Below the pieces are notes generated by a model. The model was not told the DNA's origin and made no database searches. It saw only the letters and a program-made list of their open reading frames with translations. A DNA stretch of 64,000 nt from Alphaproteobacteria bacterium (GTDB taxonomy: Bacteria > Pseudomonadota > Alphaproteobacteria > RF32 > CAG-239), in assembly GCA_017465405.1 (NCBI GenBank), contig JAFTWG010000012.1, positions 3,692-67,691 of the forward strand, given 5' to 3'. Both the position numbers and the translations under genes were made by a program. Shown piece by piece: positions 2,463 through 64,000 of this stretch (the first letter of the stretch is position 1; each line of letters begins with the position of its first letter).

Positions 2463-2466
2463 TTAG

Positions 2467-41032: not shown

Positions 41033-42049
41033 ATGAAAAAAAGTATACTGTTTTTAGGTTTATGTATGTTAGCCTTAAATGCAAATGCTCAAAATTTTGG
41101 CGGAAAAACGAACACTAATATGACGGCAAACGCTAAACCTGAGGAAGAAATGGGATTGATAAAACCCCACCCATTGTTGTCACTTTCAATTCCTGAAAAA
41201 TACAATTTTGATGATCATTTAACCCAAAATATGAAAACACAAAATGGTGAAAGCTTAAATTGTAAAGAACAAAATGAGGTTATTGTTTGCGTGGATAAAA
41301 ATCAAAAACCATTTACAGGTATTGCAAACGGCAGTGATTCTAAATTAAAGCTGACAAGTCAGGCTAATTACAAAAATGGCATGCTTAACGGATTATCTAG
41401 AATTATGTATGATAATAATAAAATTGCTTTCGAAGCTAAATATATCAATGGCAAAAGAAACGGAGTAGCTGTTGCTTATTCAAGGTTGGGACCTAAACAA
41501 AGCGAAACTCACTATAAAAACGGTAAAAAAGATGGACGTTACACTCTGTATTATTTAACAGGCATTAAAACCGTTGAGATGACATTTAAAAATGATAAAG
41601 CAGAAGGAATGGCAAGATCATGGCATCCTAATGGAAAACTACAATCCCAGGCTCTTTTTGTAGATAATTTGATGGAAGGAAATGTAACTTCTTATTATCC
41701 GCACGGAAAAATAGCATATCAAGAAGTATACAAAAACGGAAAAAGAAATGGTATTGTAAAACACTACGAGGAAAATACCGGAAAAATGGATATTGAAGCT
41801 CCTTACATAGATGGAAAAATTCATGGAACGTTGAAAATTTATGATAACGGCAGAATTATTTTTAAAACAGATTATGAAAATGATGTAGCTAATGGAGAAT
41901 ATATCGGATACAATGATAATGGAACAATCTCAATGAGTGCAACTATCGTAAATGGTAAATTAGAAGGAATGGCAAAGGTTTTCGATGACTATGGAAAATT
42001 GGAAAGTATCGAATATTATAAAGACGGAGAAGCAGTAGACCAACCATAA
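41033..42049 (+). CDS. secreted MORN/YwqK-type repeat protein
   Basis: Signal peptide MKKSILFLGLCMLALNANA|Q. At least 8 iterated Y(K/I)NGK(K/R)(D/N)G...Y units. Confidence 0.75.
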   Translation: MKKSILFLGLCMLALNANAQNFGGKTNTNMTANAKPEEEMGLIKPHPLLSLSIPEKYNFDDHLTQNMKTQNGESLNCKEQNEVIVCVDKNQKPFTGIANGSDSKLKLTSQANYKNGMLNGLSRIMYDNNKIAFEAKYINGKRNGVAVAYSRLGPKQSETHYKNGKKDGRYTLYYLTGIKTVEMTFKNDKAEGMARSWHPNGKLQSQALFVDNLMEGNVTSYYPHGKIAYQEVYKNGKRNGIVKHYEENTGKMDIEAPYIDGKIHGTLKIYDNGRIIFKTDYENDVANGEYIGYNDNGTISMSATIVNGKLEGMAKVFDDYGKLESIEYYKDGEAVDQP

Positions 42050-42471: not shown

Positions 42472-42754
42472 TCTTTGTTACATTTGATTTGTATTTTAAA
42501 TAGTTAGACATAATTATTTCAATTTTGCTTTATATAATAACGATTTTACACAAAATGCAATAAAAAACTTTGGGCGTTTTTTTATTTGAACTAAAATTAA
42601 TTATTAGAAATACGCTATTTTTGCAGAAAATATTGACAAAAAAACTTTTAAAATTTAATATAAAAACATGATTAGAATAACTAATATTTATTGTGTATAT
42701 CCCTGATGCCTTAGGCAAGTATCAAATCGGGATTAATGCCTAAAAATAACAACT

Positions 42755-43309
42755 ATGATACAAGCAATTAAAGGCTTAGAAATTGAGAACAAGGCTCCCA
42801 GAGCCGTAGTATGTAACCGCATTCCTTCAGACAATTTCTTCGGATGGAACAGCAACAAGGATATGCTCAAACTTGGTAGAGTATATCACATTGAGCGTCT
42901 GGTTGTACACAAGTGCAACACCGAAGTATTTTTGAAGGAGTTCCCCGGTTTTTCGTTTAATTCCGTTTGTTTCGGCGAAGTCGAAAATTCGAAGGCAGCA
43001 TCTCGTTTGCAATCAATTATTGACACGGCGAAAAACCGAGGAAGAGTCATAAAAAAACTCCGGCATCTGTCTTCTCCGAGAGCTGTCAATATTCAGATGT
43101 CTCGTTTCCACGTGAAGTTGACATCTGAACGTATGTCACTTTTGAAAGATGGTGATATTTTGGTAATCGGACGCGACGCAAGCTGTGACATCAACATCAC
43201 GAAGACAGATAGAGGTGTATCAAGATATCACTGTGTAATTGTGAAAAATTCACAGGGATATGACTTGTACGATATGTCTCTCTCGGGAACTACCGTGTGG
43301 TTTGACTAA
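42755..43309 (+). CDS. FHA-domain protein
   Basis: C-terminal FHA core GRDASCDINITKTDRGVSRYHCVIV...YDLYDMSLSGTTV. Confidence 0.7.
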   Translation: MIQAIKGLEIENKAPRAVVCNRIPSDNFFGWNSNKDMLKLGRVYHIERLVVHKCNTEVFLKEFPGFSFNSVCFGEVENSKAASRLQSIIDTAKNRGRVIKKLRHLSSPRAVNIQMSRFHVKLTSERMSLLKDGDILVIGRDASCDINITKTDRGVSRYHCVIVKNSQGYDLYDMSLSGTTVWFD

Positions 43310-43349
43310 GACAAAGGACCTCGTTGCATAGGCAATGTTATTTAAACGA

Positions 43350-43380
43350 AGAAGCACTCTCACAAGAGAGTGCTTTTTTA
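43350..43380 (+). terminator. rho-independent terminator after the FHA gene
   Basis: GCACTCTC-acaa-GAGAGTGC followed by TTTTTTA. Confidence 0.85.
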
Positions 43381-43403
43381 TGGTAGGCGTGTGGGGGCTT
43401 GAG
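43381..43403 (-). repeat. partial direct copy (21/23 nt) of the tRNA-Lys 3' end, att-like
   Basis: tggtaggcgtgtgggggcttgag here versus tggtaggcgcgtgggggctcgaa at 43625-43647. Confidence 0.6.
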
Positions 43404-43580
43404 GAAAGAAAACAGTCCTGTGAACTGTTTTCTGACGAAAGGCGAACATTTGTTAGTTTGCAAACAAGATAACATCGCAGATTGCAAACGTTACAAATGG
43501 AGTGACCTAAGCGAGTTAGCGAAAGTATTGAGCTTATGAGCAAGAAGAACCCTCGGGTTCGAGCCCCGGAATATTTTGAT

Positions 43581-43613
43581 AAAAATAAAAGACCTTCAAA
43601 CTTGTTGAAGGCC
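43581..43613 (-). terminator. terminator downstream of tRNA-Lys (minus strand)
   Basis: Minus strand GGCCTTCAA-caagt-TTGAAGGTC followed by TTTTATTTTT. Confidence 0.7.
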
Positions 43614-43624
43614 TTCATTTATTA

Positions 43625-43700
43625 TGGTAGGCGCGTGGGGGCTCGAACCCCAGACCCACTGATTAAGAGTCAGTTGCTCTACCAACTGAGCTACGCACCC
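43625..43700 (-). tRNA. tRNA-Lys (anticodon CTT), 76 nt with encoded CCA
   Basis: Reverse complement folds as a cloverleaf. Acceptor GGGTGCG/CGCGCCT. D-arm GCTC-AGTTGGTA-GAGC. Anticodon stem ACTGA/TCAGT with loop CTCTTAA. T-arm CTGGGG-TTCGAGC-CCCCA. 3' end ACCA. Confidence 0.85.
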
Positions 43701-44161
43701 ATAATCTTTCTTACGGGAATATAGACCGCTAATATTTTTTTTGCAACAACTTTTTTATATAAACTTGCATTTTTTTTCTTGACATACACCGGCAAAAAAA
43801 TTAGAAAGCAGTCATTCAGTGATTTTTTAGATAATTTTTTTGTTTGTTTCCATAGGTTTTGTTTTTAATTGAGAACAATTAACTCCTTCTTTCGTTTTTA
43901 GTTGGTTGTACTCACGGACAGTATGGGCTGTGAAGTTCGTACTGTTTTCTCAAAGAAAATACGTTACCTGATATAAGCCGGTTGTTTAACCCGCTACAAA
44001 TACACTTTTTTGCTTGTGTCTGATAGGGATAGGGATGCTTTTGCATATTGTATACCTTACCATAGTGATGAATAATTTTATACCCCTATCCTACTCTTGC
44101 GAAGGCGACTTTAATCTTTTATGGTTAATGTCGCCTTTTTTATTCTCCATTCATAAAAAAA

Positions 44162-44183
44162 GGCTTTGCATTGCTGCAAAGCC
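44162..44183 (-). terminator. copy A of the conserved hairpin+U-run element, acting as the terminator after the immunity gene of cassette 1
   Basis: Minus strand GGCTTTGCA-gcaa-TGCAAAGCC followed by TTTTTTT. Confidence 0.7.
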
Positions 44184-44205
44184 GATTAAAGACTAACACA
44201 ATATT

Positions 44206-44694
44206 TTATATATCAATTTTCCGGTATACTACATAATGTATACTTTCTGTTATAATAACTATCGGAAGCCAAAACAAAACAACCCCCAAAAAAGATGTCC
44301 ATAACAACATTCCATCTATCCCTATCATAGTTACGGACAAAAGACATAACCAATTACATATTATCCAAAAGATAAACTCACCTGCTCTGATAATCACAGA
44401 TGAAAAACTTAATATTTTTTTGCGAAGATAATCATATAAAAAATATATCGGTCCCCAAAAAATATACAAAATATAAAATTTAACAGAAAAAACACAAGGC
44501 ATATCATGCCACACCCATTGATAAATAACACCATATTGCCACACATTATAATCACAAACTTCTCCATTGGGATTTGTTCCAAAACCGACTTGGAAAACCA
44601 TAGCAAAAAGAAACGTTACGCATAAAAAACATAGTATATATAATATGCTCTTAACAAATTTCTTGTTATAATATAGTCTCATTTTTCCTCCCAT
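44206..44694 (-). CDS. polytopic membrane protein, 162 aa. Candidate immunity protein for toxin 1
   Basis: 4-5 TM helices. Start overlaps the toxin 1 stop by 16 nt. Confidence 0.5.
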   Translation of the reverse strand: MGGKMRLYYNKKFVKSILYILCFLCVTFLFAMVFQVGFGTNPNGEVCDYNVWQYGVIYQWVWHDMPCVFSVKFYILYIFWGPIYFLYDYLRKKILSFSSVIIRAGEFIFWIICNWLCLLSVTMIGIDGMLLWTSFLGVVLFWLPIVIITESIHYVVYRKIDI

Positions 44695-45443
44695 GGTTTT
44701 GTTTCGTATGCAGTCTTAACTCTGGCTCCGACATTATTAATTATATATGCTCCGGTATCATTCCATAAAGTTCCTATTTTATCCGGTGTAGGATTATCAA
44801 TAGAACCATATAGTTGTTTTATAAGCCTTACTCCCAATTCAATATTTTGCTCTGCATCATAAGTATCATAATATTTACCCTGAAAATTTCCCCAAGTTTT
44901 ACCTTGTATATTCATCGGCATCTGACTACCTGACATAGAAAATAAATCGGCTAAATTATTAGCTCCCCCCTTATGTCCGGTTGCGGCTTCATTGTACATA
45001 ATAGCCTTAACTATGTCCGGAGATATGTTATATTTATTGGCATATTTTTCAATGCTGTCACTATATTTATTAACATAATATTTTCCTAGCCAATCCAAAG
45101 TATACCAAGGCCAATTATAATTTGCCTTATCATTATTTTTTATATTCAATTTAAGATGTTGCCCATTTTTTAACGCCATAATTCGTTGTCGTTCATCTAA
45201 ATTATTATCTGAAATACTTCGATATTTATCTATATCACTCATAACATTTGGATTATTATTTTGAGCATATAATATCCGTTTGTGTTCATAATCATTGTTT
45301 AGTTTTTCTCTCTCAACTCGGGCAAATTGATATTCCAATTCGTCTCGAGTAGTAAAGTTTTTATGATTGACACCATAGCTATCAATACCGTCATTATTGA
45401 TATAATAACCCGATTTTGATTTATATTGAGGATACATACTCAT
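44679..45443 (-). CDS. polymorphic toxin 1: conserved N-terminal domain plus lysozyme-like (SLT/lytic-transglycosylase-like) C-terminal domain
   Basis: N-terminus MSMYPQYKSKSGYYINNDGIDSYGVNHKNFTTRDELEYQFARVEREK is shared with toxin 2 at ~85-90% nt identity over the first ~200 nt. C-terminus has IMYNEAATGHKGG...SQMPMNIQ, reminiscent of the SLT ES...GLMQ core. No signal peptide. Confidence 0.55.
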   Translation of the reverse strand: MSMYPQYKSKSGYYINNDGIDSYGVNHKNFTTRDELEYQFARVEREKLNNDYEHKRILYAQNNNPNVMSDIDKYRSISDNNLDERQRIMALKNGQHLKLNIKNNDKANYNWPWYTLDWLGKYYVNKYSDSIEKYANKYNISPDIVKAIMYNEAATGHKGGANNLADLFSMSGSQMPMNIQGKTWGNFQGKYYDTYDAEQNIELGVRLIKQLYGSIDNPTPDKIGTLWNDTGAYIINNVGARVKTAYETKPWEEK

Positions 45444-45530
45444 TTATTTTTTTCTTTCATAAAAAAAAGGCTTTGCATTGCTGCAAAGCCGGTTAAAACA
45501 ACTTTCTTGACTTAATATTTTTTCAAACTA
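45230..45530. repeat. repeat unit copy B (toxin 5' region + hairpin/U8 + promoter-like segment)
   Basis: Matches the units at 47650-48017 and 48590-48960 across the toxin 5' region and the hairpin GGCTTTGCATTGCTGCAAAGCC at 45469-45490. Confidence 0.7.
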
Positions 45531-45570
45531 TTCTATATGAAAATACGACACAAATTTTATAAGGAAAACA

Positions 45571-46317
45571 ATGTTAAAAAAAATACTCATAATCATTTTT
45601 GCAACCTGTATTTTTTATAAAACAGCTAATGCCGATGTCTGTTATTATATAAATAAACAGACAATAAAAAATGCTGTTGAAATTATAAAAAAACAAAAAG
45701 AGGTTTTTAAGTATTGTTCAATATGTCCTTCTGCAGAAGCTCTAAAAATCGCAGTAAAAAATATCTCTGAAACATCCCCCATTGCAATAAATGGAACGAA
45801 TGTCGACATTGCTCACCTTTATTACTTCAAAAATAACAATTTTATAAATATCGGCATAGAAGCGGGTTGCATTAAAAACGGACAGTATGGTATAGAAAAA
45901 TCATTAAATAAACTTCCCATATTGTATGATTCTAAAGAAAAAAATATGGAATTGATTGAAGCTAAAATACAAAAAATTCATAATAAATGCTCGTCATTAT
46001 CAAAAAACAAAAATAATATTACTACAAATGACATGATTGATTATAACAGTCAATGCAGTCAATACTTTATTGAAGAGATAAAGAAAGAAATCAAGACAGC
46101 CTTCTCACCCCATGAACAAACAAAAATGTTAGAATATTTATCTCAATCTGAAAATGCCATTTTTAATTTTTATAATAATATATATTCCGCCAATAAATAT
46201 TGTGATGGACAATGTGGAACTATGGCAACCTACCTCCCATATATTGATAAAATCTCAATGTTGGAAAAAATGTTAAAAAAACTACTTTATCTTAATCTGA
46301 CAAAGAACGGATATTAA
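45571..46317 (+). CDS. secreted protein, 248 aa, unknown function
   Basis: Signal peptide MLKKILIIIFATCIFYKTANA|D. Lys/Asn-rich. Promoter lies in the repeat-derived segment (TTGACT...). Confidence 0.55.
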   Translation: MLKKILIIIFATCIFYKTANADVCYYINKQTIKNAVEIIKKQKEVFKYCSICPSAEALKIAVKNISETSPIAINGTNVDIAHLYYFKNNNFINIGIEAGCIKNGQYGIEKSLNKLPILYDSKEKNMELIEAKIQKIHNKCSSLSKNKNNITTNDMIDYNSQCSQYFIEEIKKEIKTAFSPHEQTKMLEYLSQSENAIFNFYNNIYSANKYCDGQCGTMATYLPYIDKISMLEKMLKKLLYLNLTKNGY

Positions 46318-46350
46318 ATAATATCCGTTTTTTTTAATTACTTTATTCTA

Positions 46351-46450
46351 ATTTGATTTATATTGAGGATACATATTCATTTATTTTTCCTTTCATAAAA
46401 AAAGGCCTTGCATTGCTACAAAGCCGATTAAAACAACTTTCTTGAATCAA
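46351..46450. repeat. repeat unit copy C: degenerate hairpin plus a 9-codon remnant of a toxin start (MNMYPQYKSN*)
   Basis: Minus strand ATGAATATGTATCCTCAATATAAATCAAATTAG. The hairpin GGCCTTGCATTGCTACAAAGCC has mismatches. Confidence 0.65.
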
Positions 46451-46466
46451 TATTTTTCCGCAAATA

Positions 46467-46901
46467 TTACAACCAACAATCACCTTTCATTTGTTGAATA
46501 TAGTCTTTTGCAATTTGTCGAAATATGTAATTAGCACGACTAATAGCCTCTGTATTGCGCATAGTTGCATGATCTGCCATGTCACTATATTGTGATATAT
46601 TATGACAATTCTTATATATATTAACAACCAATTTGTTAAAATCCTCTTTGACCTGCTTATTTCGTTTTGTATAAAAAGTATCAAATATTTTATATACAAC
46701 AGCAATAATACAATCAGCAGACTTATACGTAGCCTCATTCATATCTGCTGTTGATGGATTATTAGTCATATCAATTTTACAATTATTCAATTCTTCTTCA
46801 ATAGAATAAATGCTATTTATTATCGCAGTTGAACATATAGAATCATCTGCAAAAACACTAAAAGGCATTAATAAAAACAGCAAAAAAATAATCTTCTTCA
46901 T
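46467..46901 (-). CDS. secreted (periplasmic) protein, ~144 aa mature. Candidate immunity protein for toxin 2. Start taken at MKKIIFLL
   Basis: Signal peptide MKKIIFLLFLLMPFSVFA|DD, then a Cys-containing domain. Lies 10 nt downstream of the toxin 2 stop. Confidence 0.55.
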   Translation of the reverse strand: MKKIIFLLFLLMPFSVFADDSICSTAIINSIYSIEEELNNCKIDMTNNPSTADMNEATYKSADCIIAVVYKIFDTFYTKRNKQVKEDFNKLVVNIYKNCHNISQYSDMADHATMRNTEAISRANYIFRQIAKDYIQQMKGDCWL

Positions 46902-46911
46902 TGTTTTCCTC

Positions 46912-47796
46912 TCATTTCCCTGTATAGTACTGATGATACTTATTAAAAATATAATCGTCAACTCTATCTTTATATAGTTTTTCAAATTCATTAAAATTAC
47001 TATAATAATTCTGTAAACGATTATACCAACCTCTTAAATTATTAATATTTTCATGTGGATACTTATCTACACTATCAAAATATCTGCTCATTCTTTTTCT
47101 GGATAATAAATCATTAAACGGAACTATTTCATTTTCCTGAAATGAATTTATATAATTTGCTAATTTTTGTGAAACTCTTGTATTTCCAGCAAAGTTAGTA
47201 TTTTTATATTCATTAACAGCTGAAGCTAAATCATATCCAGCTATAGTTCCTTGATTCATCAATCCGTCAAAAACATTCCTTGCAATAGATACATTATCAA
47301 TCTGATTTATACCATACCGTTGATAGTACATTTCATCCAATATTTGTTTAGCCTGTTGAGGTTTTAGGTGCTCAACATATTTAGGAAAATTACTTCCTTT
47401 TTTTAATGGGTGATTCCATAAATTATATTCATTTAATGAATTCTGCGTAATTCCATAATTAGTAGGACCGCCTAAATCATTTTCACGATTAGAATACCCC
47501 ATTTCATGATCTGCTGTTCCTTTATATATAAAATTATTATTATCATCTTTTTTTGAATAATAAATATCGTCAAAATTATATTCCATTACATCACTCATAA
47601 CATTTGGATTATTGTTTTGAGCATATAATATTCCGTTTTTATTATTGTTAATCTGTTTTTCTCTCTCAACTCGGGCAAATTGATATTCCAATTCATCTCG
47701 AGTGCTAAAATTTTTATGATTAACTCCATAATTATCAATACCGTCATCATTAATATAATAACCCGATTTTGATTTATATCGAGGATACATATTCAT
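46912..47796 (-). CDS. polymorphic toxin 2: conserved N-terminal domain plus GH108-family muramidase C-terminal domain
   Basis: N-terminus MNMYPRYKSKSGYYINDDGIDNYGVNHKNFSTRDELEYQFARVEREK. C-terminus HEMGYSNRENDLGGPTNYGIT...IARNVFDGLMNQG matches the GH108 core (EGGYVNDPxDPGGxTxxGIT...AVFDxxVNxG). Confidence 0.7.
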   Translation of the reverse strand: MNMYPRYKSKSGYYINDDGIDNYGVNHKNFSTRDELEYQFARVEREKQINNNKNGILYAQNNNPNVMSDVMEYNFDDIYYSKKDDNNNFIYKGTADHEMGYSNRENDLGGPTNYGITQNSLNEYNLWNHPLKKGSNFPKYVEHLKPQQAKQILDEMYYQRYGINQIDNVSIARNVFDGLMNQGTIAGYDLASAVNEYKNTNFAGNTRVSQKLANYINSFQENEIVPFNDLLSRKRMSRYFDSVDKYPHENINNLRGWYNRLQNYYSNFNEFEKLYKDRVDDYIFNKYHQYYTGK

Positions 47797-48017
47797 TTAT
47801 TTTTTCCTTTCATAAAAAAAAGCTTTGCATTGCTGCAAAGCCGATTAAAACATCTTTCTTGACTTGATAATTTTTCGATACTATGCTCCTTTTATATAGA
47901 GAGGAGCTTTTACAATGAAAAAACATATTATATTATGCTTGACATTCTTATTATCTGCCTGTTCTCTTTTTAATTCTTATGATAAAGAGTTCAAAAACCC
48001 TATTTTTTACCAACCTA
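47650..48017. repeat. repeat unit copy D (~370 bp): toxin 5' region, hairpin/U8, sigma70-like promoter, RBS and first ~35 codons of a lipoprotein gene
   Basis: Near-identical to 48590-48960. Hairpin at 47822-47842. TTGACT-17-TATGCT. RBS GAGGAG. Lipoprotein N-terminus MKKHIILCLTFLLSAC. Confidence 0.8.
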
Positions 48018-48328
48018 TGCGTCCTCTTTCAACACGTACGGGATGGACATATTTAACTCCTACTTCCGTCAATTTTAGAACACCATTGGATAAAAATAAA
48101 ATCAATTCAACCGGAAAATGCGACCTCATTGAAAACGAACAAGATAAAATTACCTTAAAATGTAAAATTTTTAGGAGAGACGGATATGTCACAACTGAAT
48201 ATTTGACTTACGTAATAACTGATCTGTATCTTTTTGATCGTTTAAGAATCGAAGAAAGAATAGATGGTGGGGGAACCTATTCTCTTAGTGTAACGCCTCA
48301 TTATTTAATCTCTCCAACACACCATTGA
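47915..48328 (+). CDS. lipoprotein paralog A, 137 aa
   Basis: Lipobox LLSAC. N-terminal 35 aa and 5'UTR identical to paralog B. Shares the internal KCDLIENEQDK(I/V)TLKCK. Confidence 0.65.
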   Translation: MKKHIILCLTFLLSACSLFNSYDKEFKNPIFYQPMRPLSTRTGWTYLTPTSVNFRTPLDKNKINSTGKCDLIENEQDKITLKCKIFRRDGYVTTEYLTYVITDLYLFDRLRIEERIDGGGTYSLSVTPHYLISPTHH

Positions 48329-48740
48329 ATTTAATTTGCTTCGTGCCCAATCATTTCTACCTGCGTGAACATCTTTGCGATGAACATTATTTCTGATATC
48401 ATTAACATTACATTCTTCTATCACCCTAAATAAATTAGGCCAATACTTTGGGGTTAACTTTCCGGTATTATACTGAATATCAAGCAATACCTCTTTTAAT
48501 TCTATCGGAAATTTATCAAAATCATTAAATTGTCGACGCAAATGAGCTAAGTCATTATTCATATGTTTTTGTGCTAAAGAGCGGGCATAATCATCTGTTT
48601 TTCTCTCTCAACTCGAGCAAATTGATATTCTAATTCATCTCTAGTAGTAAAGTTTTTATGATTAACTCCATAGCTATCAATACCATCATCATTGATATAA
48701 TAACCCGATTTTGATTTATATTGAGGATACATATTCATTT
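48305..48740 (-). pseudogene. degraded toxin copy 3: 48-codon N-terminal remnant, stop, then out-of-frame T4-lysozyme-like C-terminal half (85-aa ORF 48305-48562)
   Basis: MNMYPQYKSKSGYYINDDGIDSYGVNHKNFTTRDELEYQFARVEREKQMIMPAL* then a frame change. The 85-aa ORF EVLLDIQYNTG...RNDWARSKL resembles the C-terminal lobe of GH24/T4 lysozyme (ALINMVFQMG...NRAKRV). The catalytic N-lobe is missing. Confidence 0.55.
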
Positions 48741-48960
48741 ATTTTTTCCTTTCATAAAAAAAAGGCTCTGCATTACTGCAAAGCCGGTTAAAACAACTTT
48801 CTTGACTTAATATTTTTTTGATACTATGCTCCTTTTATATAGAGAGGAGCTTTTACAATGAAAAAACATATTATATTATGCTTAACTTTTTTGTTATCTG
48901 CCTGTTCTCTTTTCAATTATTATGATAAGGAGTTCAAAAATCCTATTTTTTATCAACCTA
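48590..48960. repeat. repeat unit copy E (~370 bp)
   Basis: See copy D. Hairpin GGCTCTGCATTACTGCAAAGCC at 48764-48785. Confidence 0.8.
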
Positions 48961-49307
48961 TACAAAACACTTTATACTACTCAAGAGGGGCTATCGAAGA
49001 AATTATAATATATACATACTTGACACCTACAAGTTTTACTTTTAAGGATGTTTCAAAGAATATTGTACTCAGTACCCCAAACAAATGTGATCTCATCGAA
49101 AATGAACAAGATAAAGTAACCCTAAAATGCAAAGTTGATAAGTTTGGCGAACCCGCTATTTATTATTTGCAATTTAAAATTAAGAACACCAAAGATAGTG
49201 ACTGCACAAAAATCGTAACTTATTTGGCTTATAATGATATCAAAAAGCTAGATTCACATATTTCCGGATGTGTTGTCCATTCTGATAAACAGGCAGATAA
49301 AAATTAA
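48858..49307 (+). CDS. lipoprotein paralog B, 149 aa
   Basis: MKKHIILCLTFLLSACSLFNYYDKEFKNPIFYQP... Lipobox LLSAC. Confidence 0.65.
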   Translation: MKKHIILCLTFLLSACSLFNYYDKEFKNPIFYQPIQNTLYYSRGAIEEIIIYTYLTPTSFTFKDVSKNIVLSTPNKCDLIENEQDKVTLKCKVDKFGEPAIYYLQFKIKNTKDSDCTKIVTYLAYNDIKKLDSHISGCVVHSDKQADKN

Positions 49308-51568
49308 AATCTGTTACTGTTTATATTTCCTTTTAATATTGCCGGAATATCGTTAAAATTGCTCACATTTTGCCAGATGGAAGCAACTCTTTCTGCCGAA
49401 TAAGTTTTATAACAAAAATCTACCCGATAAAAATCTGCTTTTATCTGTTTGGCTTCTTTAGCAATGCAAAACGGCTTCTCATCAAATACAAAAGTTTGAC
49501 AATTTTTAGATAATGCCCAATAAGTTTTTCCGTCTTTTTGCAACATCATCCAACGAGTACCTTTCAAGCATTTTGCACACGGATTTTCTCTAATACAAAC
49601 TGCACTAGAAAATAGCGGAATATCCTGATAAATCGGCAAAACCACCGCTAACGGAGATTTTTTTGCTAAATCTTTCATATTATCAATAGTATCTTCTACC
49701 GACATAGATATTCTAGATACAGATATTTCTTTCGCCATATTAATAGCCTGTGTATTCATCATATAAAGACTATTATCAAAAGCCAAATCTATCCCTTTAT
49801 TCGGTAAAACTTCTAATCCCCACCAATTACCGATAGTCCATTTTTTATAGCCTTGAGCTAGGATTTTTTCGGCAACTTTAGCCAATACGGCAGAATTACG
49901 AGCTAATGCCGGCAAAACAATTCTTACTTTGGTTTTGGGAAGTTTTTTTAAGCACTCAATATCAAAATCGGCATTTATCAAAACTTCTACTTCTGCAACA
50001 GTTTCTAAATCTATTTTTGCCAAATTATCAACATTGTCTGTTCTGATAATCCATTTAGGTTCGTTTACTTTTCTTGGCTCTGAAACCTCTGGCAATTCGC
50101 CCTTTTTACCGTTAATTTCTATTTTAGTGTATAAACCGCGTCGCAATTCGTTTAACATTGACATTGGCACAAAAAGATGCTGCAAGTTATTGATATGCAA
50201 GTTTTTCAAGGTAAAAAGTGTATCTCCGGTTTTATTAAAAGCCTTTTGTACGGCATCATTCATCTTTTCAACATTTTCGGTTGGAGAAAACTCTCCTTCG
50301 ATACAAAATTCTGCCCCATTACCGCTTGCTTTTATAACATTCGGCAAAATACTGACCTCAACATCTATATCATAGCGGCGGCTATACTCCCCTGACTTCG
50401 GACGAGAATAATCATAACTACCTTTTACTTCACTTGCCGAAGCTAAATATATTTTCTGCCCTTTTTCTATGCCGAAAGTTTTTGCGGGAAGTTGCACAGT
50501 CACTTCATCGCCTACATTAGCCTCAAAAACTCTTTGCCCTTTTACCGTCATATTTTGCAATGAAAATCCGAATGGTTTTTCCTGTCCCGGAATATCAATT
50601 TGCAATCCATCGTGACGAGCTATTTTGTGATATGCTTTAAAGACAATTTTACCTTTTACAATTTGATTAATTTTTCCGATATGCAAACCACGATGACCGA
50701 CAAAATCTCTATCCACAACTTCCTTATTTTTGCCGTTGAACATAAATTTGCACCAAGGGCGAGAGAATATTTGTTTAATGTTCTCTTCTTTTTGAGCGAT
50801 AGCACCTTTACCATCTAAAATATTTCGATAATAATCAGTAACGGCAGCAACATACAAAGCATTTTTCTTACGTCCCTCAATTTTTAGTGATGTTACCGGC
50901 ATCTTCAATATATCTTGTTGTAAAGCCATATCTTTCATTGAAAAATAGTGCATTTCACCGGCTTCACCCATAAACAACGAACGACAAGGATATAAACATT
51001 TTCCCCTATTGGCGCTACGACCGCTATCTATTGACGAAAACAAACATAACCCGCTATAAGAATAGCATAATGCACCATGTATAAATGCTTCTGTTTCCAA
51101 TCCCTTAATTGAGGCAATATCCTTAATTTCGGCCAGTGAGAGTTCTCGAGCCAACACTACTCGCTTAAACCCGAGTTTTTGCAAGGCTAATGCCCCCTGT
51201 TTATTGTGTACCGCCATTTGCGTACTTGCGTGTAACTCCAATTCCGGATATTTATCACGAATAACTTTTGCCACACCTAAATCTTGTAAAATTACACCGT
51301 CAACTCGACAATTTGAACATATGTCCAAGCTTTTTATCAACTCCGGAAGCTCATTTTCTTGAACCAAAGTATTGATAGCTGCATATACTTTACGCTTCAA
51401 ACTATGAGCATATCCGACAAATTCGCTCAATTCTTCTTCGCTGAAATTAACCGCAGTGGCTCGTGCCGAAAAATGTTTTAACCCTAAATATACCGCATCA
51501 GCACCATAATATATGGCCGCATAACCTGCTTCAATATCTCCGGCAGGAGCTAATAGTTCTTTCTTCAT
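49304..51568 (-). CDS. U32 family peptidase, double-domain (754 aa)
   Basis: N-terminal LLAPAGDIEAGYAAIYYGADAVYLG U32 signature. Second U32-like half. Confidence 0.8.
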   Translation of the reverse strand: MKKELLAPAGDIEAGYAAIYYGADAVYLGLKHFSARATAVNFSEEELSEFVGYAHSLKRKVYAAINTLVQENELPELIKSLDICSNCRVDGVILQDLGVAKVIRDKYPELELHASTQMAVHNKQGALALQKLGFKRVVLARELSLAEIKDIASIKGLETEAFIHGALCYSYSGLCLFSSIDSGRSANRGKCLYPCRSLFMGEAGEMHYFSMKDMALQQDILKMPVTSLKIEGRKKNALYVAAVTDYYRNILDGKGAIAQKEENIKQIFSRPWCKFMFNGKNKEVVDRDFVGHRGLHIGKINQIVKGKIVFKAYHKIARHDGLQIDIPGQEKPFGFSLQNMTVKGQRVFEANVGDEVTVQLPAKTFGIEKGQKIYLASASEVKGSYDYSRPKSGEYSRRYDIDVEVSILPNVIKASGNGAEFCIEGEFSPTENVEKMNDAVQKAFNKTGDTLFTLKNLHINNLQHLFVPMSMLNELRRGLYTKIEINGKKGELPEVSEPRKVNEPKWIIRTDNVDNLAKIDLETVAEVEVLINADFDIECLKKLPKTKVRIVLPALARNSAVLAKVAEKILAQGYKKWTIGNWWGLEVLPNKGIDLAFDNSLYMMNTQAINMAKEISVSRISMSVEDTIDNMKDLAKKSPLAVVLPIYQDIPLFSSAVCIRENPCAKCLKGTRWMMLQKDGKTYWALSKNCQTFVFDEKPFCIAKEAKQIKADFYRVDFCYKTYSAERVASIWQNVSNFNDIPAILKGNINSNRF

Positions 51569-53341: not shown

Positions 53342-53416
53342 TTACATTCTTCATAAAAGTTAACTTTGTCCGCATACTATACAATTTTTAATAATTTGCC
53401 AAGACATTTTATATAC

Positions 53417-53647
53417 TTATTTACACAGCTCTAATTCTTGTCTTAACTTATTAATTTTTTCAAGCCATTGCCACAAAAAAGGAGCCTGCTCAAAACTGAT
53501 TTGAACAAGCTCTTCTGCAACTTTTACTCCTGCTTTCGGATATACGGGACAATAATACTCATAATTGGTTTTTGCGCATGAGTTCAAGCAAATTGTTACG
53601 ACCGATATTAGGACTGCCGTATATTTTTGATTTTTTCTTTTCAACAT
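53417..53647 (-). CDS. o-spanin-like small lipoprotein (Rz1-like), embedded/overlapping arrangement
   Basis: Lipobox ICLNSC. 76 aa. Overlaps the 3' end of the preceding TM-protein ORF in another frame. Confidence 0.45.
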   Translation of the reverse strand: MLKRKNQKYTAVLISVVTICLNSCAKTNYEYYCPVYPKAGVKVAEELVQISFEQAPFLWQWLEKINKLRQELELCK

Positions 53648-53861
53648 ATTTTATTACCTCTATTTGTTCGGTTATAATTTTAGTTTTGGCATGAGAGCGT
53701 CCCAAAAAATATGAAAACAATACAAGCGCAAAAATAAATATTAAATATGTCACAATCCTAACCACGATAAAACATCCCTCCCCGCCAAACACAAAGCCAG
53801 TATCATACCCCATAAAAGCCAATAAATTTTTTTGTGTTTTATCGCCAAAGCAAATAACCAT
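53559..53861 (-). CDS. i-spanin-like protein (Rz-like), N-terminal TM plus charged periplasmic tail. Start uncertain (ATG 53861 or TTG 53867)
   Basis: TM IVVRIVTYLIFIFALVLFSYFLG then ITEQIEVIKYVEKKK. Overlapped by the lipoprotein ORF. An alternative-frame 59-aa ORF with a strong RBS also exists here (see rejected). Confidence 0.4.
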   Translation of the reverse strand: MVICFGDKTQKNLLAFMGYDTGFVFGGEGCFIVVRIVTYLIFIFALVLFSYFLGRSHAKTKIITEQIEVIKYVEKKKSKIYGSPNIGRNNLLELMRKNQL

Positions 53862-53909
53862 CGCCAAAACTTATAACAACAATTTTGATGTTCCGTCATA
53901 ACTTCCTCC

Positions 53910-53941
53910 AACAAAAAAGACACGAAAAAAATTTCGTGTCT
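53910..53941 (-). terminator. intrinsic terminator inside the lysis region (minus strand)
   Basis: Minus strand AGACACGAAA-ttttt-TTCGTGTCT followed by TTTTTTG. Confidence 0.65.
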
Positions 53942-54095
53942 TTATTAAAAAAAATATCTTATAATCAAGGTAAGTTTTTTATCTCACCCGTTAAAAATAA
54001 AAATATGATTCCAATAACCCACAGGCAAAAATAAATAACTATTATCCAAGCTAAAGTTAATGATATATATTTAGGAGCTTTATATATATATTTAG

Positions 54096-54524
54096 TTATT
54101 TTTTCCATACATTATTCTTCCAATCCAAATTACTTAGCCATATTCTACAATCTTTATAAGGATTATTCAATCCCCAATTTATACCTTCCATATTATTTTT
54201 CATATCCTTATAAGAATCTTGTATACTTTCACTCCAAGGCATATCTCCTACAACAGATTTATTATAAATATCATATGCTTCTTTCAGCATTCCCAGAGAC
54301 CACCCCTTAGTTGGAGCCATAATATCACCTTTTCCCAGTCTTTGTCCAACTTCACACATTCCTAATCTATGATAATAATTATCAAGACCATTTGCTGCTC
54401 CTGAACCATATTGTCGAACAAGTCTTTTTCCCTCATTTTTCAATTTTACTTGATTGTCATTTAAAATTTTATATTCCGGCATCCAACCTAATACAACATC
54501 TGCTACTCTTTTTATATTTGTCAT
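54096..54524 (-). CDS. hypothetical protein, 142 aa, within lysis cassette
   Basis: Clean ORF between the endolysin and the spanins. Trp-rich. No motif recognised. Confidence 0.5.
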   Translation of the reverse strand: MTNIKRVADVVLGWMPEYKILNDNQVKLKNEGKRLVRQYGSGAANGLDNYYHRLGMCEVGQRLGKGDIMAPTKGWSLGMLKEAYDIYNKSVVGDMPWSESIQDSYKDMKNNMEGINWGLNNPYKDCRIWLSNLDWKNNVWKK

Positions 54525-54534
54525 AACTTCCTCC

Positions 54535-54976
54535 TTATTTTATATCATTGTAAAATAAATGATTTTTAGTTTCATAACACGGGCTATGATGTTTAGCCCA
54601 TTTCGGTTTTATCTGTTTGGTATGATAAAAAGTCGCATTATTGGTAAAATCTGACAACTCGCCATCAATCGCTTTTTTTGCTATTTTAATACAACAGACA
54701 AAAGCTTTGTCTTTTTCATTTACCGTCATCAGTTTAGAATAATTTACATCGTTTTTATTCCAACAACTGAATTGTGCTTTTTTCAAACAGGTTGCTTTTA
54801 TATCCGCAACTTTTTGACCTTCTTCAATCCTATATCCCGTAAACCATTTTTTTGCCTTAAAACGATTAATTATCACTCGAGCAACGGCCTCTATCCCCTC
54901 TGCTCCGTCCCCCCTTGCTTCTCCCCACAAAGTTCTGGCCATAATTTGCAAATCACCCCACTCGTCAATTTTCATT
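54535..54976 (-). CDS. endolysin, SleB/CwlJ-type cell-wall hydrolase (Hydrolase_2 family). Track ORF extends to 55026
   Basis: ARTLWGEARGDGAEGIEAVARVIINR family signature. Confidence 0.75.
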
Positions 54977-55264
54977 TTTACCGACCTTTCTTTTGCAATT
55001 AAGCAACAAATCAAGTTTGCTTTCAAAACTGTCGAACTTACTTTCCAGTTTTGCCAACATAATATTTTGGTGATTTTGCATCATCATAATTGAAGCTGTT
55101 TCTTTATCTGTCTTATCCACTCTCTGCATAATCCCTGACAAACGTTCTTCCAAACGTCCTTTCCAAGTTCCGACTTTTACTAAATTCCACAACATTCCCG
55201 CCAAAGCAGAAATTCCGGAAACAGCACCGATCACATTTATAAATTCCATTTGTTTTCTCCACAA
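54965..55264 (-). CDS. holin candidate, 99 aa, single TM
   Basis: TM FINVIGAVSGISALAGMLWNLV followed by a charged tail. Immediately upstream of and overlapping the endolysin. Preceded by a terminator/promoter gap. Confidence 0.55.
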   Translation of the reverse strand: MWRKQMEFINVIGAVSGISALAGMLWNLVKVGTWKGRLEERLSGIMQRVDKTDKETASIMMMQNHQNIMLAKLESKFDSFESKLDLLLNCKRKVGKNEN

Positions 55265-55287
55265 AAAAAAGGGGCATTTCTGCCCCG
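55262..55287 (-). terminator. terminator separating structural genes from the lysis cassette (minus strand)
   Basis: Minus strand GGGGCA-gaaa-TGCCCC followed by TTTTTTTT. Confidence 0.75.
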
Positions 55288-55575
55288 TTATTCTTTCGGA
55301 TAATCTGTTTTTATTTTACTTATTGTATCCGCCCATATATTAGTTTGATTTACTTTATCCCAATAAATCATATCAAGTTGTTCTCCGATATCAGGATACG
55401 CCATTCGACGTTTGGCTTGATAATCGGGTTCTTTTTTTTCTGACTTTTCCGCAAAATAAAAATCTCCTTTCTCTACAATTTTATATTGATTTTGATTACA
55501 CCACTCCGCCCATTTTTGATAAATTTCCGTATTAAACTCTTTTTTTTTCATAACAAAATTTACAAAATCAATCAT
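55288..55575 (-). CDS. hypothetical phage protein, 95 aa
   Basis: ORF in the structural block. Confidence 0.45.
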   Translation of the reverse strand: MIDFVNFVMKKKEFNTEIYQKWAEWCNQNQYKIVEKGDFYFAEKSEKKEPDYQAKRRMAYPDIGEQLDMIYWDKVNQTNIWADTISKIKTDYPKE

Positions 55576-55584
55576 TTTTATCTC

Positions 55585-56307
55585 CTAAAATCCTATTGCC
55601 AACCAATGCCAAGCTGACGTTGCAAAACAATAATATGAAAACCCAGTAGTTTGCAGTTCCCTTATTATCAACGTAGCAACTTGATTTGTGCTGGCTGTCG
55701 AATATCTTGAAGTCGTCAAAGTATACACCGTTGTGTTAAACGGTTGCGGATAACTTATGCTTCCTTCTGTTTCGGTATACACTTTTCCCCATTGAATCAA
55801 AAATCCGTTGGCAAACTTCAAATGGTTAGTTCCTTTTTCAACTAAATTGAAGCCGTTTATAAATTCCGTCGTTGCCACATTGTTTGAAATATCGTCAACC
55901 GCAGGTGTTACTGCTTTTAACAAGCCCAAAAATTCTTTATCCCCCAAAATTGTTTGTCCATCTTCAACAGTTACTATTTTTTCCAATCTGGTATCAATAT
56001 CTGCAATTCCGCTTTCAACCACCGAATTAATATCATTACGCCCTTCTGCCACTATTTCAGCTGCTTCTTGCACATAATTTTTAACTTCCTGTTTTGAATT
56101 TTCTAATTCATCAAACAACAATTTTTCTTTATCTGCCACATAGTCGTCAATTTCAGGTTTAGATTTTTCATCTACATAATATTGAATTTCTTCTTCTCCC
56201 GATTTTATGTAGCTGACATCAACTTCAGTTTCTAAACACACCTCATTTTGAAAAAAAACATCAAAATCTTTTGAGGCATAATTTTCAAAAATATTAATTT
56301 CCGTCAT
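55585..56307 (-). CDS. phage structural protein, 240 aa (possible fibre/receptor-binding protein)
   Basis: Acidic N-terminal half and beta-rich C-terminal half. Position beside the tail-collar gene. Confidence 0.4.
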   Translation of the reverse strand: MTEINIFENYASKDFDVFFQNEVCLETEVDVSYIKSGEEEIQYYVDEKSKPEIDDYVADKEKLLFDELENSKQEVKNYVQEAAEIVAEGRNDINSVVESGIADIDTRLEKIVTVEDGQTILGDKEFLGLLKAVTPAVDDISNNVATTEFINGFNLVEKGTNHLKFANGFLIQWGKVYTETEGSISYPQPFNTTVYTLTTSRYSTASTNQVATLIIRELQTTGFSYYCFATSAWHWLAIGF

Positions 56308-56656
56308 CGCCTACCTCTGCACTAATTTGAAATATTGCATTTGAAGTTAAATCTTGCGGAAAAATTGTATGTACATCTCCATTTTTGAAAATAATTTCAA
56401 TGTTAGCAGCATAAATACCCGCCTCTTGCTCAGAGTGTTTCGGCAAAATTTTAATTCTGGCTTTTCCGTTTACGCCATCAATTATTTCTCCGATAATTTT
56501 GAATTTTAGAATTTTATCCTTATCCTGTACGGTTAAAAGTATTTTGCTTTCACTTATATCAATCGGAGTTCCGTTTTTATTCTTAAATTGCATAACAATA
56601 TCAAAACTGTCACCCTGTCTGACTAAAATACTGTTAGTAGTCATAATTCCTGCCAT
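56294..56656 (-). CDS. hypothetical phage protein, 120 aa
   Basis: Clean ORF whose start overlaps the collar gene's stop. Confidence 0.45.
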   Translation of the reverse strand: MAGIMTTNSILVRQGDSFDIVMQFKNKNGTPIDISESKILLTVQDKDKILKFKIIGEIIDGVNGKARIKILPKHSEQEAGIYAANIEIIFKNGDVHTIFPQDLTSNAIFQISAEVGDDGN

Positions 56657-56657
56657 A

Positions 56658-57431
56658 TCAATCCTCCTTTGCCTTAATAAAGTAATTTAATGCAATATTT
56701 TTCATTCTTATTTCCGAAGAACGCCCATAAACCGAGTTTGATTTCGTTGCACTAAAATTAACGATTGAAAAATTTTTACCGGCATCAAGACCGCCGTCAT
56801 ATTTTCCGGTTACTGAAGATGAACTGAATGCTCCGGTTAATGACGAAGAATATTCTGCCGCACCTCCGGCAAAACGACCGCCGATATTCGGAGCACCATC
56901 TTGTTGATAGCTTCCAAATTTTCGGTCGGCATCCAATCCTCGTCCTTTATCAAGACCTCTGACAACCACACCTCGACAATCGGGAAGGTTAAAAGTAGTT
57001 ACGCCATTTCCCTTACCAAAGGCCGTTCCTATCGCCTCAAATAATATCTCATATTCTTCACGTTCAACTTCACGACCATCGCATAACAACCAGTTTTTAT
57101 GGTCTTTTTGCAAAGCAGAGCATTTGATGTCACCTACACATAATGTTTGATTTATTTTGTCGGTAACATCGTTTTTTGCTTCTTCTAATTGTTGTTTATT
57201 AATTGCATCGTTTACAGAAGTTGCTTTTCCGACATTATTAATTCTGAAACCGCCCAAATTTAAATTTGCTTCCATCGGAACTAAGCCGTTACGTAACAAA
57301 CACTCGTTTAATCCTTGTGCAAAATTATCATCTTCTTCATCATGATGATCACTGACAATATCAATATCGTCTATTCTGTCTTGTTCCCAGTTATGTAAAC
57401 GATAAAATTTTCCTTGTGAATCAAAAGGCAT
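56658..57431 (-). CDS. tail fibre protein with phage tail-collar domain
   Basis: LLCDGREVEREEYEILFEAIGTAFGKGNGVTTFNLPDCRGVVVRG matches the tail-collar (Phage_T4_gp12-like) motif. Confidence 0.7.
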   Translation of the reverse strand: MPFDSQGKFYRLHNWEQDRIDDIDIVSDHHDEEDDNFAQGLNECLLRNGLVPMEANLNLGGFRINNVGKATSVNDAINKQQLEEAKNDVTDKINQTLCVGDIKCSALQKDHKNWLLCDGREVEREEYEILFEAIGTAFGKGNGVTTFNLPDCRGVVVRGLDKGRGLDADRKFGSYQQDGAPNIGGRFAGGAAEYSSSLTGAFSSSSVTGKYDGGLDAGKNFSIVNFSATKSNSVYGRSSEIRMKNIALNYFIKAKED

Positions 57432-57434
57432 TCT

Positions 57435-58496: not shown

Positions 58497-58791
58497 TCAG
58501 TGCATTAATACGCCGACATTTAAGAACTTCAAAACCTGTTCCAAAAATTTGTTTAAGAGTTTTTTGTGAACACCAATGTTTGTCATCGGTGTATATATTT
58601 ATCCAAGTTGACGTTTTGTCTTGATAATCACAATAAACCACACCGCCGACAATTTTATTTTGATAAACTATCCCAAGAGCCAAACAATCATTAACATCAT
58701 CAAAATTTAGTCCCAGACCTTTAGCTACATACGTTTTTATATTTCCGCTTTTATCATAAAAAACCTCAGACAATTCCATCTCCCGTTTCAA
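58336..58791 (-). CDS. GNAT-family acetyltransferase embedded in the tail gene block (RimJ/RimL-like)
   Basis: 151 aa with a GNAT fold signature (...LAKRCGFKKEGKMRQF...). The annotated ORF overlaps the fibre gene by 160 nt, so the true start is probably an internal Met. Confidence 0.5.
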   Translation of the reverse strand: MKREMELSEVFYDKSGNIKTYVAKGLGLNFDDVNDCLALGIVYQNKIVGGVVYCDYQDKTSTWINIYTDDKHWCSQKTLKQIFGTGFEVLKCRRINALIDTRNKSSISLAKRCGFKKEGKMRQFRDNGQDVFVFGMLRNECKFINNSKKEK

Positions 58792-61551: not shown

Positions 61552-61614
61552 TTTATTTCTCCATATAAAAAGGCGGCACCGTTAAAGCACCGCCCTTATT
61601 TATTATTCTAAAAA

Positions 61615-62586: not shown

Positions 62587-62621
62587 TTTATATTTTCCTC
62601 TAAAAATTAAGTTATTACAAA

Positions 62622-63176: not shown

Positions 63177-63375
63177 ACATAACTTTGCGAATTGCCTTTT
63201 CCCGATTATATTTCACATTTCGGCGGAAGGCCTCCGAATAATCACCTGCGGCAACCAATCCGTTTTCGTTCAAATATTTATCTACGTCTTGCTTACAACA
63301 GGCAATACCGCCATCAGGAAGTTGTATTTCTTCCATCCATTGTTTGTTAAAATAAGTCATAAAATTACTCCGCAA
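63103..63375 (-). CDS. hypothetical phage protein, 90 aa
   Basis: ORF in the head-gene block. Confidence 0.35.
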   Translation of the reverse strand: MRSNFMTYFNKQWMEEIQLPDGGIACCKQDVDKYLNENGLVAAGDYSEAFRRNVKYNREKAIRKVMFAEFINNYKRRIWNETNDRKITGR

Positions 63376-63961: not shown

Positions 63962-64000
63962 AGTTCCGAAATTAGTCTTTTTGACTATTGCAGTCGCTGT

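Follow-up and report, generated by a model that had tools for sequence, protein, structure and literature searches.

The DNA analysed here is a stretch of 64,000 nucleotides from an Alphaproteobacteria bacterium (contig JAFTWG010000012.1), which is referred to below as the window and numbered from its first letter. It contains a 5-kb island in which the G+C content is 27-30%, against 35-38% in the flanks, and which holds genes whose products share one N-terminal module (N-module) and carry different cell-wall-degrading domains behind it. An earlier note on this DNA had proposed an array of polymorphic toxins with neighbouring immunity genes. Our analysis likewise points to a polymorphic antibacterial toxin-immunity island, a reading that we consider likely irrespective of the delivery route. 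As judged from their sequences, the contents of the window comprise two live pairs, for which an SLT toxin with a multi-pass membrane protein and a GH108 toxin with a secreted 144-aa protein are the candidates, one lysozyme toxin killed by a deletion, and three orphan immunity candidates. The features of the island and its edges are as follows:

43625-43700, minus strand: tRNA-Lys(CTT), one edge of the low-G+C stretch
44142-44225, minus strand: terminal copy of an 84-nt element, with hairpin GGCTTTGCAgcaaTGCAAAGCC and T-run at 44162-44183 and a remnant of the ribosome-binding-site (RBS) region, without N-module coding
44206-44682, minus strand: multi-pass membrane protein of family f6, 158 aa (162 aa from an upstream ATG), candidate SLT immunity protein
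44679-45443, minus strand: toxin of cassette 1, 254 aa, with the N-module at residues 1-47, the junction ILYAQNNNPNVMSD and an SLT/goose-lysozyme-like domain at ~80-254
45449-45532, minus strand: 84-nt element of cassette 1, hairpin at 45469-45490
45571-46317, plus strand: secreted 248-aa protein of family f49, with a signal peptide ending ...TANA/DV, its own promoter-like site and a terminator hairpin
46348-46467, minus strand: vestigial cassette head, made up of the 84-nt element, ATG and 10 N-module codons (MNMYPQYKSN and a stop codon), with the toxin body deleted
46384-46467, minus strand: 84-nt element of the vestigial head, hairpin at 46404-46425
46467-46901, minus strand: secreted 144-aa protein, with a signal peptide ending ...SVFA/DD, candidate GH108 immunity protein
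46912-47796, minus strand: toxin of cassette 2, 294 aa, with the N-module, the shared junction and a GH108 muramidase domain at residues 94-183
47801-47884, minus strand: 84-nt element of cassette 2, hairpin at 47821-47842
47915-48328, plus strand: lipoprotein 1 of family f1, 137 aa, lipobox LSAC, predicted 8-stranded beta-barrel, convergent with and overlapping the 3' end of cassette 3
48305-48738, minus strand: cassette 3 pseudogene, with the N-module, a deletion and frameshift at ~48590-48600 and the C-lobe of a pesticin/T4-like lysozyme
48744-48827, minus strand: 84-nt element of cassette 3, hairpin at 48764-48785
48858-49307, plus strand: lipoprotein 2 of family f1, 149 aa, lipobox LSAC, at the island edge and abutting the U32-peptidase gene, orphan immunity candidate
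49304-51568: U32-peptidase gene, other edge of the low-G+C stretch

The two full-length toxin genes were found on the minus strand where the earlier note had placed them (44679-45443, 254 aa; 46912-47796, 294 aa), as were the small membrane protein and the secreted protein downstream of them, and Pfam searches matched both proposed C-terminal domains, SLT and GH108, above cut-off. The 294-aa protein matched GH108 (PF05838) with an E-value of 5.7e-15 (56.1 bits against a gathering threshold of 21.2), together with the PHROG 315 endolysin (E 1e-18), the NCBIfam holin-associated muramidase (E 5e-10, under the cut-off) and PDB entries 2is5/2ikb (E 1.5e-4), and its C-terminal domain is predicted to be a GH108 muramidase. 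The 254-aa protein matched SLT (PF01464) with an E-value of 4.5e-5 (23.4 bits; cut-off 21.3). Its AlphaFold2 model has a mean predicted local distance difference test (pLDDT) score of 81.5, exceeding 90 in most of the C-terminal domain, with a low-confidence loop at residues 158-171, and Foldseek searches with this model returned MltC, MltE, MltF and g-type lysozyme as top PDB matches (best E 2.7e-3). The consensus KAIxYNExxxxH (YNE motif) is kept among homologues. With marginal scores, the domain is thus a candidate SLT-type lytic transglycosylase. The start of the f6 gene overlaps the stop codon of the SLT toxin gene (ATGA), and the RBS of the 144-aa gene (GAGGAA) lies 10 nt past the GH108 stop; the latter pair is kept in the sister metagenome-assembled genome (MAG) L008. 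The f6 membrane protein had no match in Pfam, NCBIfam or PHROG, and the secreted 144-aa protein had no family match in Pfam or PHROG.

A profile of the N-module recovered 245 clusters (50% identity level) among 1.84 billion representatives, in which the module is almost always N-terminal and protein lengths range from 45 to 602 aa. The scan of one genome per prokaryotic species gave at least 121 confirmed module loci. Eighty loci were retrieved, with about 8 kb of neighbouring sequence, and all 80 came from MAGs of gut or rumen Alphaproteobacteria; several loci per genome are common, and some lie in tandem with three or four copies. The earlier note had not recognised the module, and searches of Pfam, NCBIfam, PHROGs and PDB sequences were equally negative. 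Pfam searches with the N-terminal region of 88 representatives and of the window proteins gave no match either, known T6SS (type VI secretion system) marker and carrier domains (MIX, FIX, RIX, PAAR, VgrG and Hcp) included. PHROG_14385 was rejected as its identity, since the weak match (E 0.009) was not reproduced with the consensus module. The scan of 2.9 million viral contigs of IMG/VR contained no copy. The single match in INPHARED, MT838567, is an UNVERIFIED 5-kb fragment with the gene order of the bacterial locus L051; it was discarded as phage evidence because that order is a bacterial toxin-immunity one and no phage gene is visible. Absence from the phage collections, together with the location outside a prophage, speaks against the possibility raised in the earlier note that the module is a phage endolysin domain in a lysis context. 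By these comparisons the N-module appears to be a new, clade-restricted module.

The AlphaFold2 model of the N-module consists of a short hairpin and a long helix. In most relatives it is followed by a second conserved stretch, NYPQYGTNFWG...NNYGFG, and then by 50-200 residues of N/Q/S/G-rich low complexity. The window copies lack the second stretch and the long linker, and have the short shared junction ILYAQNNNPNVMSD instead. The motif (Q)TPTPW(S/A/N) recurs in disordered linkers before toxin domains (L052, L057, P0166, P0237, P0239) and also directly N-terminal to toxin domains under different N-terminal modules; a role as junction, processing or binding motif is possible. At 14 or more loci, including L012-L015, L017, L020, L030, L044, L051, L056, L072, L073 and L076, a cytoplasmic protein family of ~152 aa without Pfam or PHROG match is encoded ~100 nt upstream of the effector. 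It has the C-terminal motif KLIQLAQANNREFKK and is fused to an XRE-type helix-turn-helix in L073 and L079, and the intergenic region at these loci carries a long AT-rich palindrome (TTGTTAAAGT...TGCAAAATTTTGCA...ACTTTAACAA). This family, which is not present in the window, is a candidate regulator or chaperone.

Behind the module, the C-terminal parts vary widely. The 65 full-length module proteins fell into 16 C-terminal clusters, so that the survey of the module fused to other toxin domains gave at least 16 unrelated types. Across the 88 representatives, 11 Pfam families were found, and the recognised tips were GH108 (sometimes with PG_binding_3), SLT, Pesticin, Phage_lysozyme, a GH46-like domain, a VgrG3-like C-terminal muramidase domain (E 4e-35), Tlde1/YkuD and prok-SAA. 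The SAA-like (serum-amyloid-A-like) domain is the largest recognised class. It corresponds to prok-SAA, a branch of the Lipocone superfamily that has been reported as a tip of polymorphic toxins and for which cleavage of the head groups of lipid carriers outside the cytoplasm is predicted (PMC12419801). The 88 representatives, the majority of which are without annotation, yielded no nuclease, deaminase or NADase domain. Since the recognised tip domains are envelope-directed and no cytoplasmic toxin domain was seen, every recognisable tip is predicted to act on the envelope from the periplasmic side.

To relate toxins to their neighbours, 1,021 open reading frames (ORFs) from the loci were clustered, and the gene adjoining each effector was tabulated by C-terminal type:

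SLT: f6, multi-pass membrane protein, 4 of 4
c5: f9, 4 of 4
c3: f4 or f21
SAA-like: f2 or f3
Lysozyme/pesticin: f1 lipoprotein, 5 of 7, convergent
GH108 subtypes: f20 or f49, secreted proteins, convergent

In every partner family the sequence shows either a signal peptide, a lipobox or transmembrane segments. The SLT domain was also found under MuF-type and other N-termini, and a distant full-length f6 homologue (24% identity, E 2e-4) lies downstream of a MuF-like-SLT protein in L087. Toxin type thus co-varies with an adjacent exported or membrane family, and the SLT + f6-like pairing outlasts a change of N-terminus. A second polymorphic family was seen in MT838567.1 (L086), where two minus-strand genes at 774-1580 and 2413-3399 share a different N-terminus (MKNQSxYVWSYAAYGGEPQYIQTPYGxVKNDAAYxKYLAQKG), differ in their C-termini, and each have a secreted protein encoded convergently behind them, the signal peptides of these partners being identical. 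At the head of the MuF-like-SLT protein P0221, the IQTPYGLVKNDAAYKQYL motif is found again. MT838567.1 itself, a 5.1-kb GenBank record from human faeces labelled "UNVERIFIED: Bacteriophage sp.", is probably misclassified.

The same site holds three different cassette sets in the window and two sister genomes, with shared flanks (msbA-like, U32 and tRNA-Lys). The two sister sets are:

SGB_7587 (L008): GH108 + 144-aa protein, and SLT + f6, nothing else
RGIG9009 (L007 + L006): an intact lysozyme gene between two lipoprotein genes, then a c3-type toxin + f4 in place of SLT + f6

Between the window and L006, homology stops inside the N-module coding sequence and restarts exactly at the terminal 84-nt element. 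The restart at 44142-44225 marks this copy, which the earlier note had counted among two vestigial starts, as the 3' boundary repeat of an exchangeable unit. The alignments show that cassettes are exchanged by homologous recombination between the 5' element or N-module and the next element copy, a process that would leave orphan immunity genes and dead heads behind. The sister-genome comparison resolves the recombination boundaries of cassette exchange at the nucleotide level. The proposal of a polymorphic toxin-immunity array holds at the scale of the family, as seen in the C-terminal variety, the type-specific partners and the cassette swapping.

The repeats at these boundaries are extensive. 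A 222-nt repeat occurs three times with 79-95% identity (45302-45523, 47655-47876 and 48597-48818), and the 84-nt element occurs five times on the minus strand; three of its copies run into N-module coding, with about 150-220 nt of N-terminal peptide coding after them. In each element, a GC-rich hairpin of 9 bp is followed by 7-8 consecutive T and then by ATGAAAGGAAAAAATAA directly before the start codon. Of the 12 terminator-like sites observed (2.1 +/- 1.5 in shuffles), five are hairpins of this element. The terminal copy appears to act as a terminator behind the immunity gene and also to mark the 3' limit of the homology used when cassettes are exchanged. As for the two vestigial starts, that at 46348-46380 does keep coding for MNMYPQYKSN before its stop codon, while 44142-44225 is a non-coding hairpin and RBS element. 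On the plus strand, the element of cassette 1 contains the promoter-like site TTGACT-16-TATTCT facing the 248-aa gene, and that of cassette 2 contains TTGACT-17-TATGCT facing lipoprotein 1. An Rfam search of 40-56 kb for a known RNA at the hairpin returned tRNA alone. A sigma-70 promoter between hairpin and start codon was rejected, the space being ~20 nt and the upstream matches unconvincing. Strong GC-rich hairpins with a T-run lie 15-40 nt before effector starts in many lineages (L003, L016, L018, L022, L034, L038, L060, L064, L071 and others), at the same position across lineages and with unrelated stem sequences. This conserved position suggests a role as leader terminator, attenuator or boundary.

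The third minus-strand gene has the shared N-terminal head and the lysozyme C-lobe described in the earlier note; it is not intact, being a frameshifted deletion derivative of a 270-aa effector. It is split into 48574-48738 (minus, 54 aa) and an out-of-frame piece at 48305-48562 (minus, 85 aa), the latter with a weak match to Pesticin (E 0.076). Alignment with the intact 270-aa gene of the sister MAG L007 revealed a 379-nt deletion with the microhomology CAGATGATTA at both breakpoints and flanks that are ~97-99% identical. The deletion shifts the frame and takes out the catalytic lobe, so that the complete two-lobe domain is gone from the window copy. Intact relatives carry Pesticin PF16754 (P0256; L047, E 1.2e-6).

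The plus-strand gene for a secreted protein (45571-46317) and the two paralogous lipoprotein genes were also found as the earlier note had described. They are present not as spacers between cassettes but as convergent cognate or orphan immunity candidates. Since f1 and f49 are partners of lysozyme-type and of a GH108-type toxin, respectively, we read the plus-strand genes of the island as orphan immunity genes, each equipped with a promoter-like site and a terminator. In L079, a GH108 (c13) effector has an f49 member downstream of it in convergent orientation; the 248-aa gene of the window faces nothing but the ten-codon vestige and may be the orphaned immunity gene of a GH108-type toxin that has since been lost. 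The 137-aa lipoprotein is a candidate immunity protein for lysozyme/pesticin-type toxins. The two lipoprotein genes share their 5' end and promoter region as a 219-nt repeat with 89% identity.

Several points weigh against reading the island in this way. The envelope-only pattern covers an annotated minority of ~30 of the 88 representatives, most clusters being without a recognisable family, and the SLT assignment depends on a Pfam score and Foldseek E-values that are both marginal. The N-module was modelled with moderate confidence (pLDDT 59-84). No immunity candidate belongs to a recognisable family. Of the four cysteines conserved among f1 lipoproteins, the 137-aa protein has lost the third and fourth, which its 149-aa paralogue keeps; the 137-aa copy may be decaying or diverging. 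A terminator-like hairpin stands 20 nt ahead of each start codon, without an identifiable promoter. Finally, export machinery is not linked, as no T6SS, type IV secretion system or other apparatus gene lies in the 64-kb window.

Taking the island as a toxin-immunity locus nonetheless, each cassette would consist of the 84-nt element, an N-terminal trafficking module of ~47-70 residues, a variable envelope-damaging enzyme and a cognate protective protein. The toxins have no signal peptide and would be harmless in the producer cytoplasm because their substrate lies outside it. The N-module would act as an address label that leads out of the producer and/or across the outer membrane of a neighbour. 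In a cell without the matching immunity protein, the SLT, GH108 and lysozyme toxins would cut glycan strands; in the producer and its kin, the immunity proteins, to judge from their topology and co-variation, would reside in the periplasm or inner membrane and block the toxin.

How the toxins travel is a separate matter. T6SS genes and markers were not recurrent in the roughly 8 kb around the 80 module loci. Clustering of the 1,021 ORFs from these neighbourhoods showed no conserved linked apparatus, the families being confined to small membrane, secreted or regulator-like proteins, and Pfam profiling of 98 large neighbour families gave housekeeping genes. The MsbA-like ABC transporter adjacent to the island was rejected as an exporter, since it is not recurrent at other loci. 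Outer-membrane import of the colicin M/pesticin kind and T6SS-like contact are judged about equally likely, each a tentative possibility, and the remainder falls to something else.

As diffusible bacteriocins similar to colicin M or pesticin, the proteins would leave a fraction of the producers by release and would need import only through the outer membrane of the target, where the module with its linker would engage a receptor and Ton/Tol. All recognisable toxins are periplasm-acting, members are small (about 170-600 aa), most have a short conserved module followed by a long N/Q/S/G-rich linker, and no apparatus is linked at the loci, all of which would suit this route. The invariant D-S/A-Y-G-V motif might, by eye, bear a loose likeness to a TonB box. 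The immunity genes of the lysozyme and GH108 types are convergent and have their own promoter-like and terminator sites, an arrangement known from pesticin/pim and colicin M/cmi. However, inspection and a PDB sequence search found no canonical TonB/TolB box and no recognisable receptor-binding domain, the window copies lack the long linker, the cassettes contain no lysis or release gene, and the loci are chromosomal with no SOS box identified. Moreover, bacteriocins usually diversify in the parts that bind receptors, while the N-module shows high conservation throughout the clade. Such import is possible and no more than tentatively proposed.

The earlier note had compared the locus with T6SS effector-immunity pairs. 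The combination of periplasmic toxin and exported partner stands, but the likeness is one of analogy only, no T6SS gene being present in the window or near the 80 loci. Were the proteins T6SS cargo effectors, the N-module would be a marker like MIX, FIX or RIX that loads toxins on a spike or tube encoded elsewhere for contact injection into the periplasm. The Tlde1 and VgrG3-C tips in the module family speak for this, as both families were defined on T6SS antibacterial effectors. Against it, the window contains no adaptor (DUF4123, DUF1795, DUF2169), PAAR, VgrG or Hcp and none is recurrent at the 80 loci, none of the 245 clusters fuses the module to VgrG, PAAR or Rhs, most members have the linker of 50-200 N/Q/S/G-rich residues, and the barrel fold is generic. 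Cytoplasm-acting domains, which are usual in T6SS marker families, were not seen. Contact delivery through a T6SS is possible and likewise no more than tentatively proposed. It is also possible, and again no better than tentative, that the N-module, the NYPQYGTNFWG..NNYGFG stretch and the linker represent an undescribed Gram-negative toxin route, either secretion-independent outer-membrane import open to periplasm-acting enzymes only or an unknown export machine peculiar to gut Alphaproteobacteria.

A podovirus-like prophage occupies ~53400-64000 on the minus strand and encodes portal, major head (PHROG 9953, E 2e-107), tail, ejection, tail-fibre and holin-like proteins and a Hydrolase_2 endolysin. 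The ORF at 54096-54524 in its lysis module encodes a 142-aa prok-SAA/lipocone homologue (44% identity, E 8e-25 to L043). Two sister MAGs carry the end with the lysis and tail-fibre genes at 86-93% nucleotide identity, a level much like that of the chromosomal flanks. The island could in principle consist of phage-derived lysis or secretion cassettes, that is, endolysin and holin-like modules for prophage or particle release or TtsA-like export rather than weapons. Consistent with this are the GH108 matches to the PHROG endolysin and, under the cut-off, to the holin-associated muramidase, the prophage 4 kb away whose own lysis module holds the homologue of the commonest toxin tip, the fusion of the SLT domain to MuF, and the small multi-pass membrane protein that partners the SLT toxin. 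Yet the module is absent from the 2.9 million viral contigs and PHROGs, apart from the one UNVERIFIED, bacterial-looking phage record; the partners include lipoproteins and soluble secreted proteins, not holins; a Tlde1-type toxin is not a lysis enzyme; and type-specific pairing, orphan partners and cassette swapping suit immunity better. Because two housekeeping genes (msbA-like and U32, syntenic in L008) part the island from the prophage, related loci sit among housekeeping genes, and the module is missing from viral contigs, the island is judged not to be part of the prophage lysis module, and an origin as lysis cassettes is very unlikely. Packaging of the toxins into a particle of phage origin, such as the neighbouring podovirus-like element or an agent like a gene transfer agent, with the N-module as a MuF-like packaging signal would accommodate the SLT + f6-like pair under MuF-type N-termini and the 86-93% identity of the island-adjoining phage-like cluster in two sister MAGs, but is highly improbable, as phage structural genes do not recur around the 80 loci, viral collections lack the module and the cassettes lie far from phage genes in other genomes.

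The suggestion that a tRNA-Lys integration hotspot bounds the island was not borne out. The island lies 5' of the tRNA, and the sole repeat of the tRNA 3' end, a 23-nt copy with 3 mismatches at 43381-43403, is on the opposite side, 220 nt past the tRNA; hence the island is not bounded by tRNA att sites. No integrase was found within the island. Next to the tRNA-end copy, a ~1-kb segment (42565-43618) is missing from the sister MAG L008 and retained in L006; it contains a small FHA-domain gene (42755-43309), and this segment on the tRNA-Lys 3' side looks like a separate insertion remnant. The FHA protein was rejected as a T6SS TagH, as the match is limited to the FHA domain (23 bits against a cut-off of 120). 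Further along, 41033-42049 on the plus strand encodes a secreted 338-aa repeat protein with a weak match to the NCBIfam LIC20035-family adhesin and MORN/YwqK-like repeats; in 5 genomes, homologues are encoded a few kb or less from effector loci, which probably reflects synteny, not function. A 744-aa ORF without Pfam match, at 11985-14219 on the minus strand, lies in the only stretch of the window that reaches 43% G+C.

The module family lives in an abundant, uncultured gut and rumen lineage. If the N-module does define an undescribed route, gut Alphaproteobacteria would possess an arsenal made up wholly of envelope-targeting enzymes under one address label. The family would add a toxin-delivery module and about a dozen immunity families to what domain libraries currently list. 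Its unusually uniform choice of envelope targets constrains delivery, and the short modular proteins would be tractable for uptake or secretion work. New cell-wall-active enzymes and inhibitors may be sought among the unannotated tips and their partners.

Among known systems, the T6SS pairs Tge/Tgi, Tae/Tai, Tlde1/Tldi1 and VgrG3/TsiV3 are alike in having periplasm-acting toxins without signal peptides and periplasmic or lipoprotein immunity, and the module family itself includes Tlde1 and VgrG3-C domains; they differ in that no T6SS genes or markers are near the loci described here and several of the immunity candidates are convergent with their own promoters. Pesticin, a T4-lysozyme-like muramidase, and colicin M, with the immunity proteins Pim and Cmi, resemble the toxins of the island in small size, an N-terminal uptake region (putative in the island), a C-terminal enzyme active solely in the periplasm, periplasmic immunity and the lack of dedicated secretion. 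In contrast to them, the present proteins have no canonical TonB box or receptor-binding domain and an N-module unrelated in sequence, and are encoded in chromosomal tandem arrays, not plasmid operons. The MuF polymorphic toxins of temperate phages (Jamet et al. 2017, PMC5576092) share the SLT-like toxin with an f6-like partner, whereas the window proteins have no MuF domain and lie outside the prophage. Polymorphic toxin systems at large (Zhang et al. 2012, PMC3482391) are alike in a conserved N-terminal trafficking part with hypervariable C-terminal tips, type-specific adjacent immunity, orphans and remnants in arrays, and recombination at a conserved junction. The family described here differs from them in a module without Pfam, PHROG or PDB counterpart that is confined to gut and rumen Alphaproteobacteria, in short proteins without Rhs, filamentous or PAAR scaffolds, in a recombination substrate that is the 5' head with its upstream hairpin rather than promoter-less 3' toxin cassettes, and in recognised tips that are exclusively envelope-directed. 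Polymorphic toxin-immunity loci are thus a well-known kind, and what is new here is the putative trafficking module, the candidate immunity families and the envelope-only arsenal.

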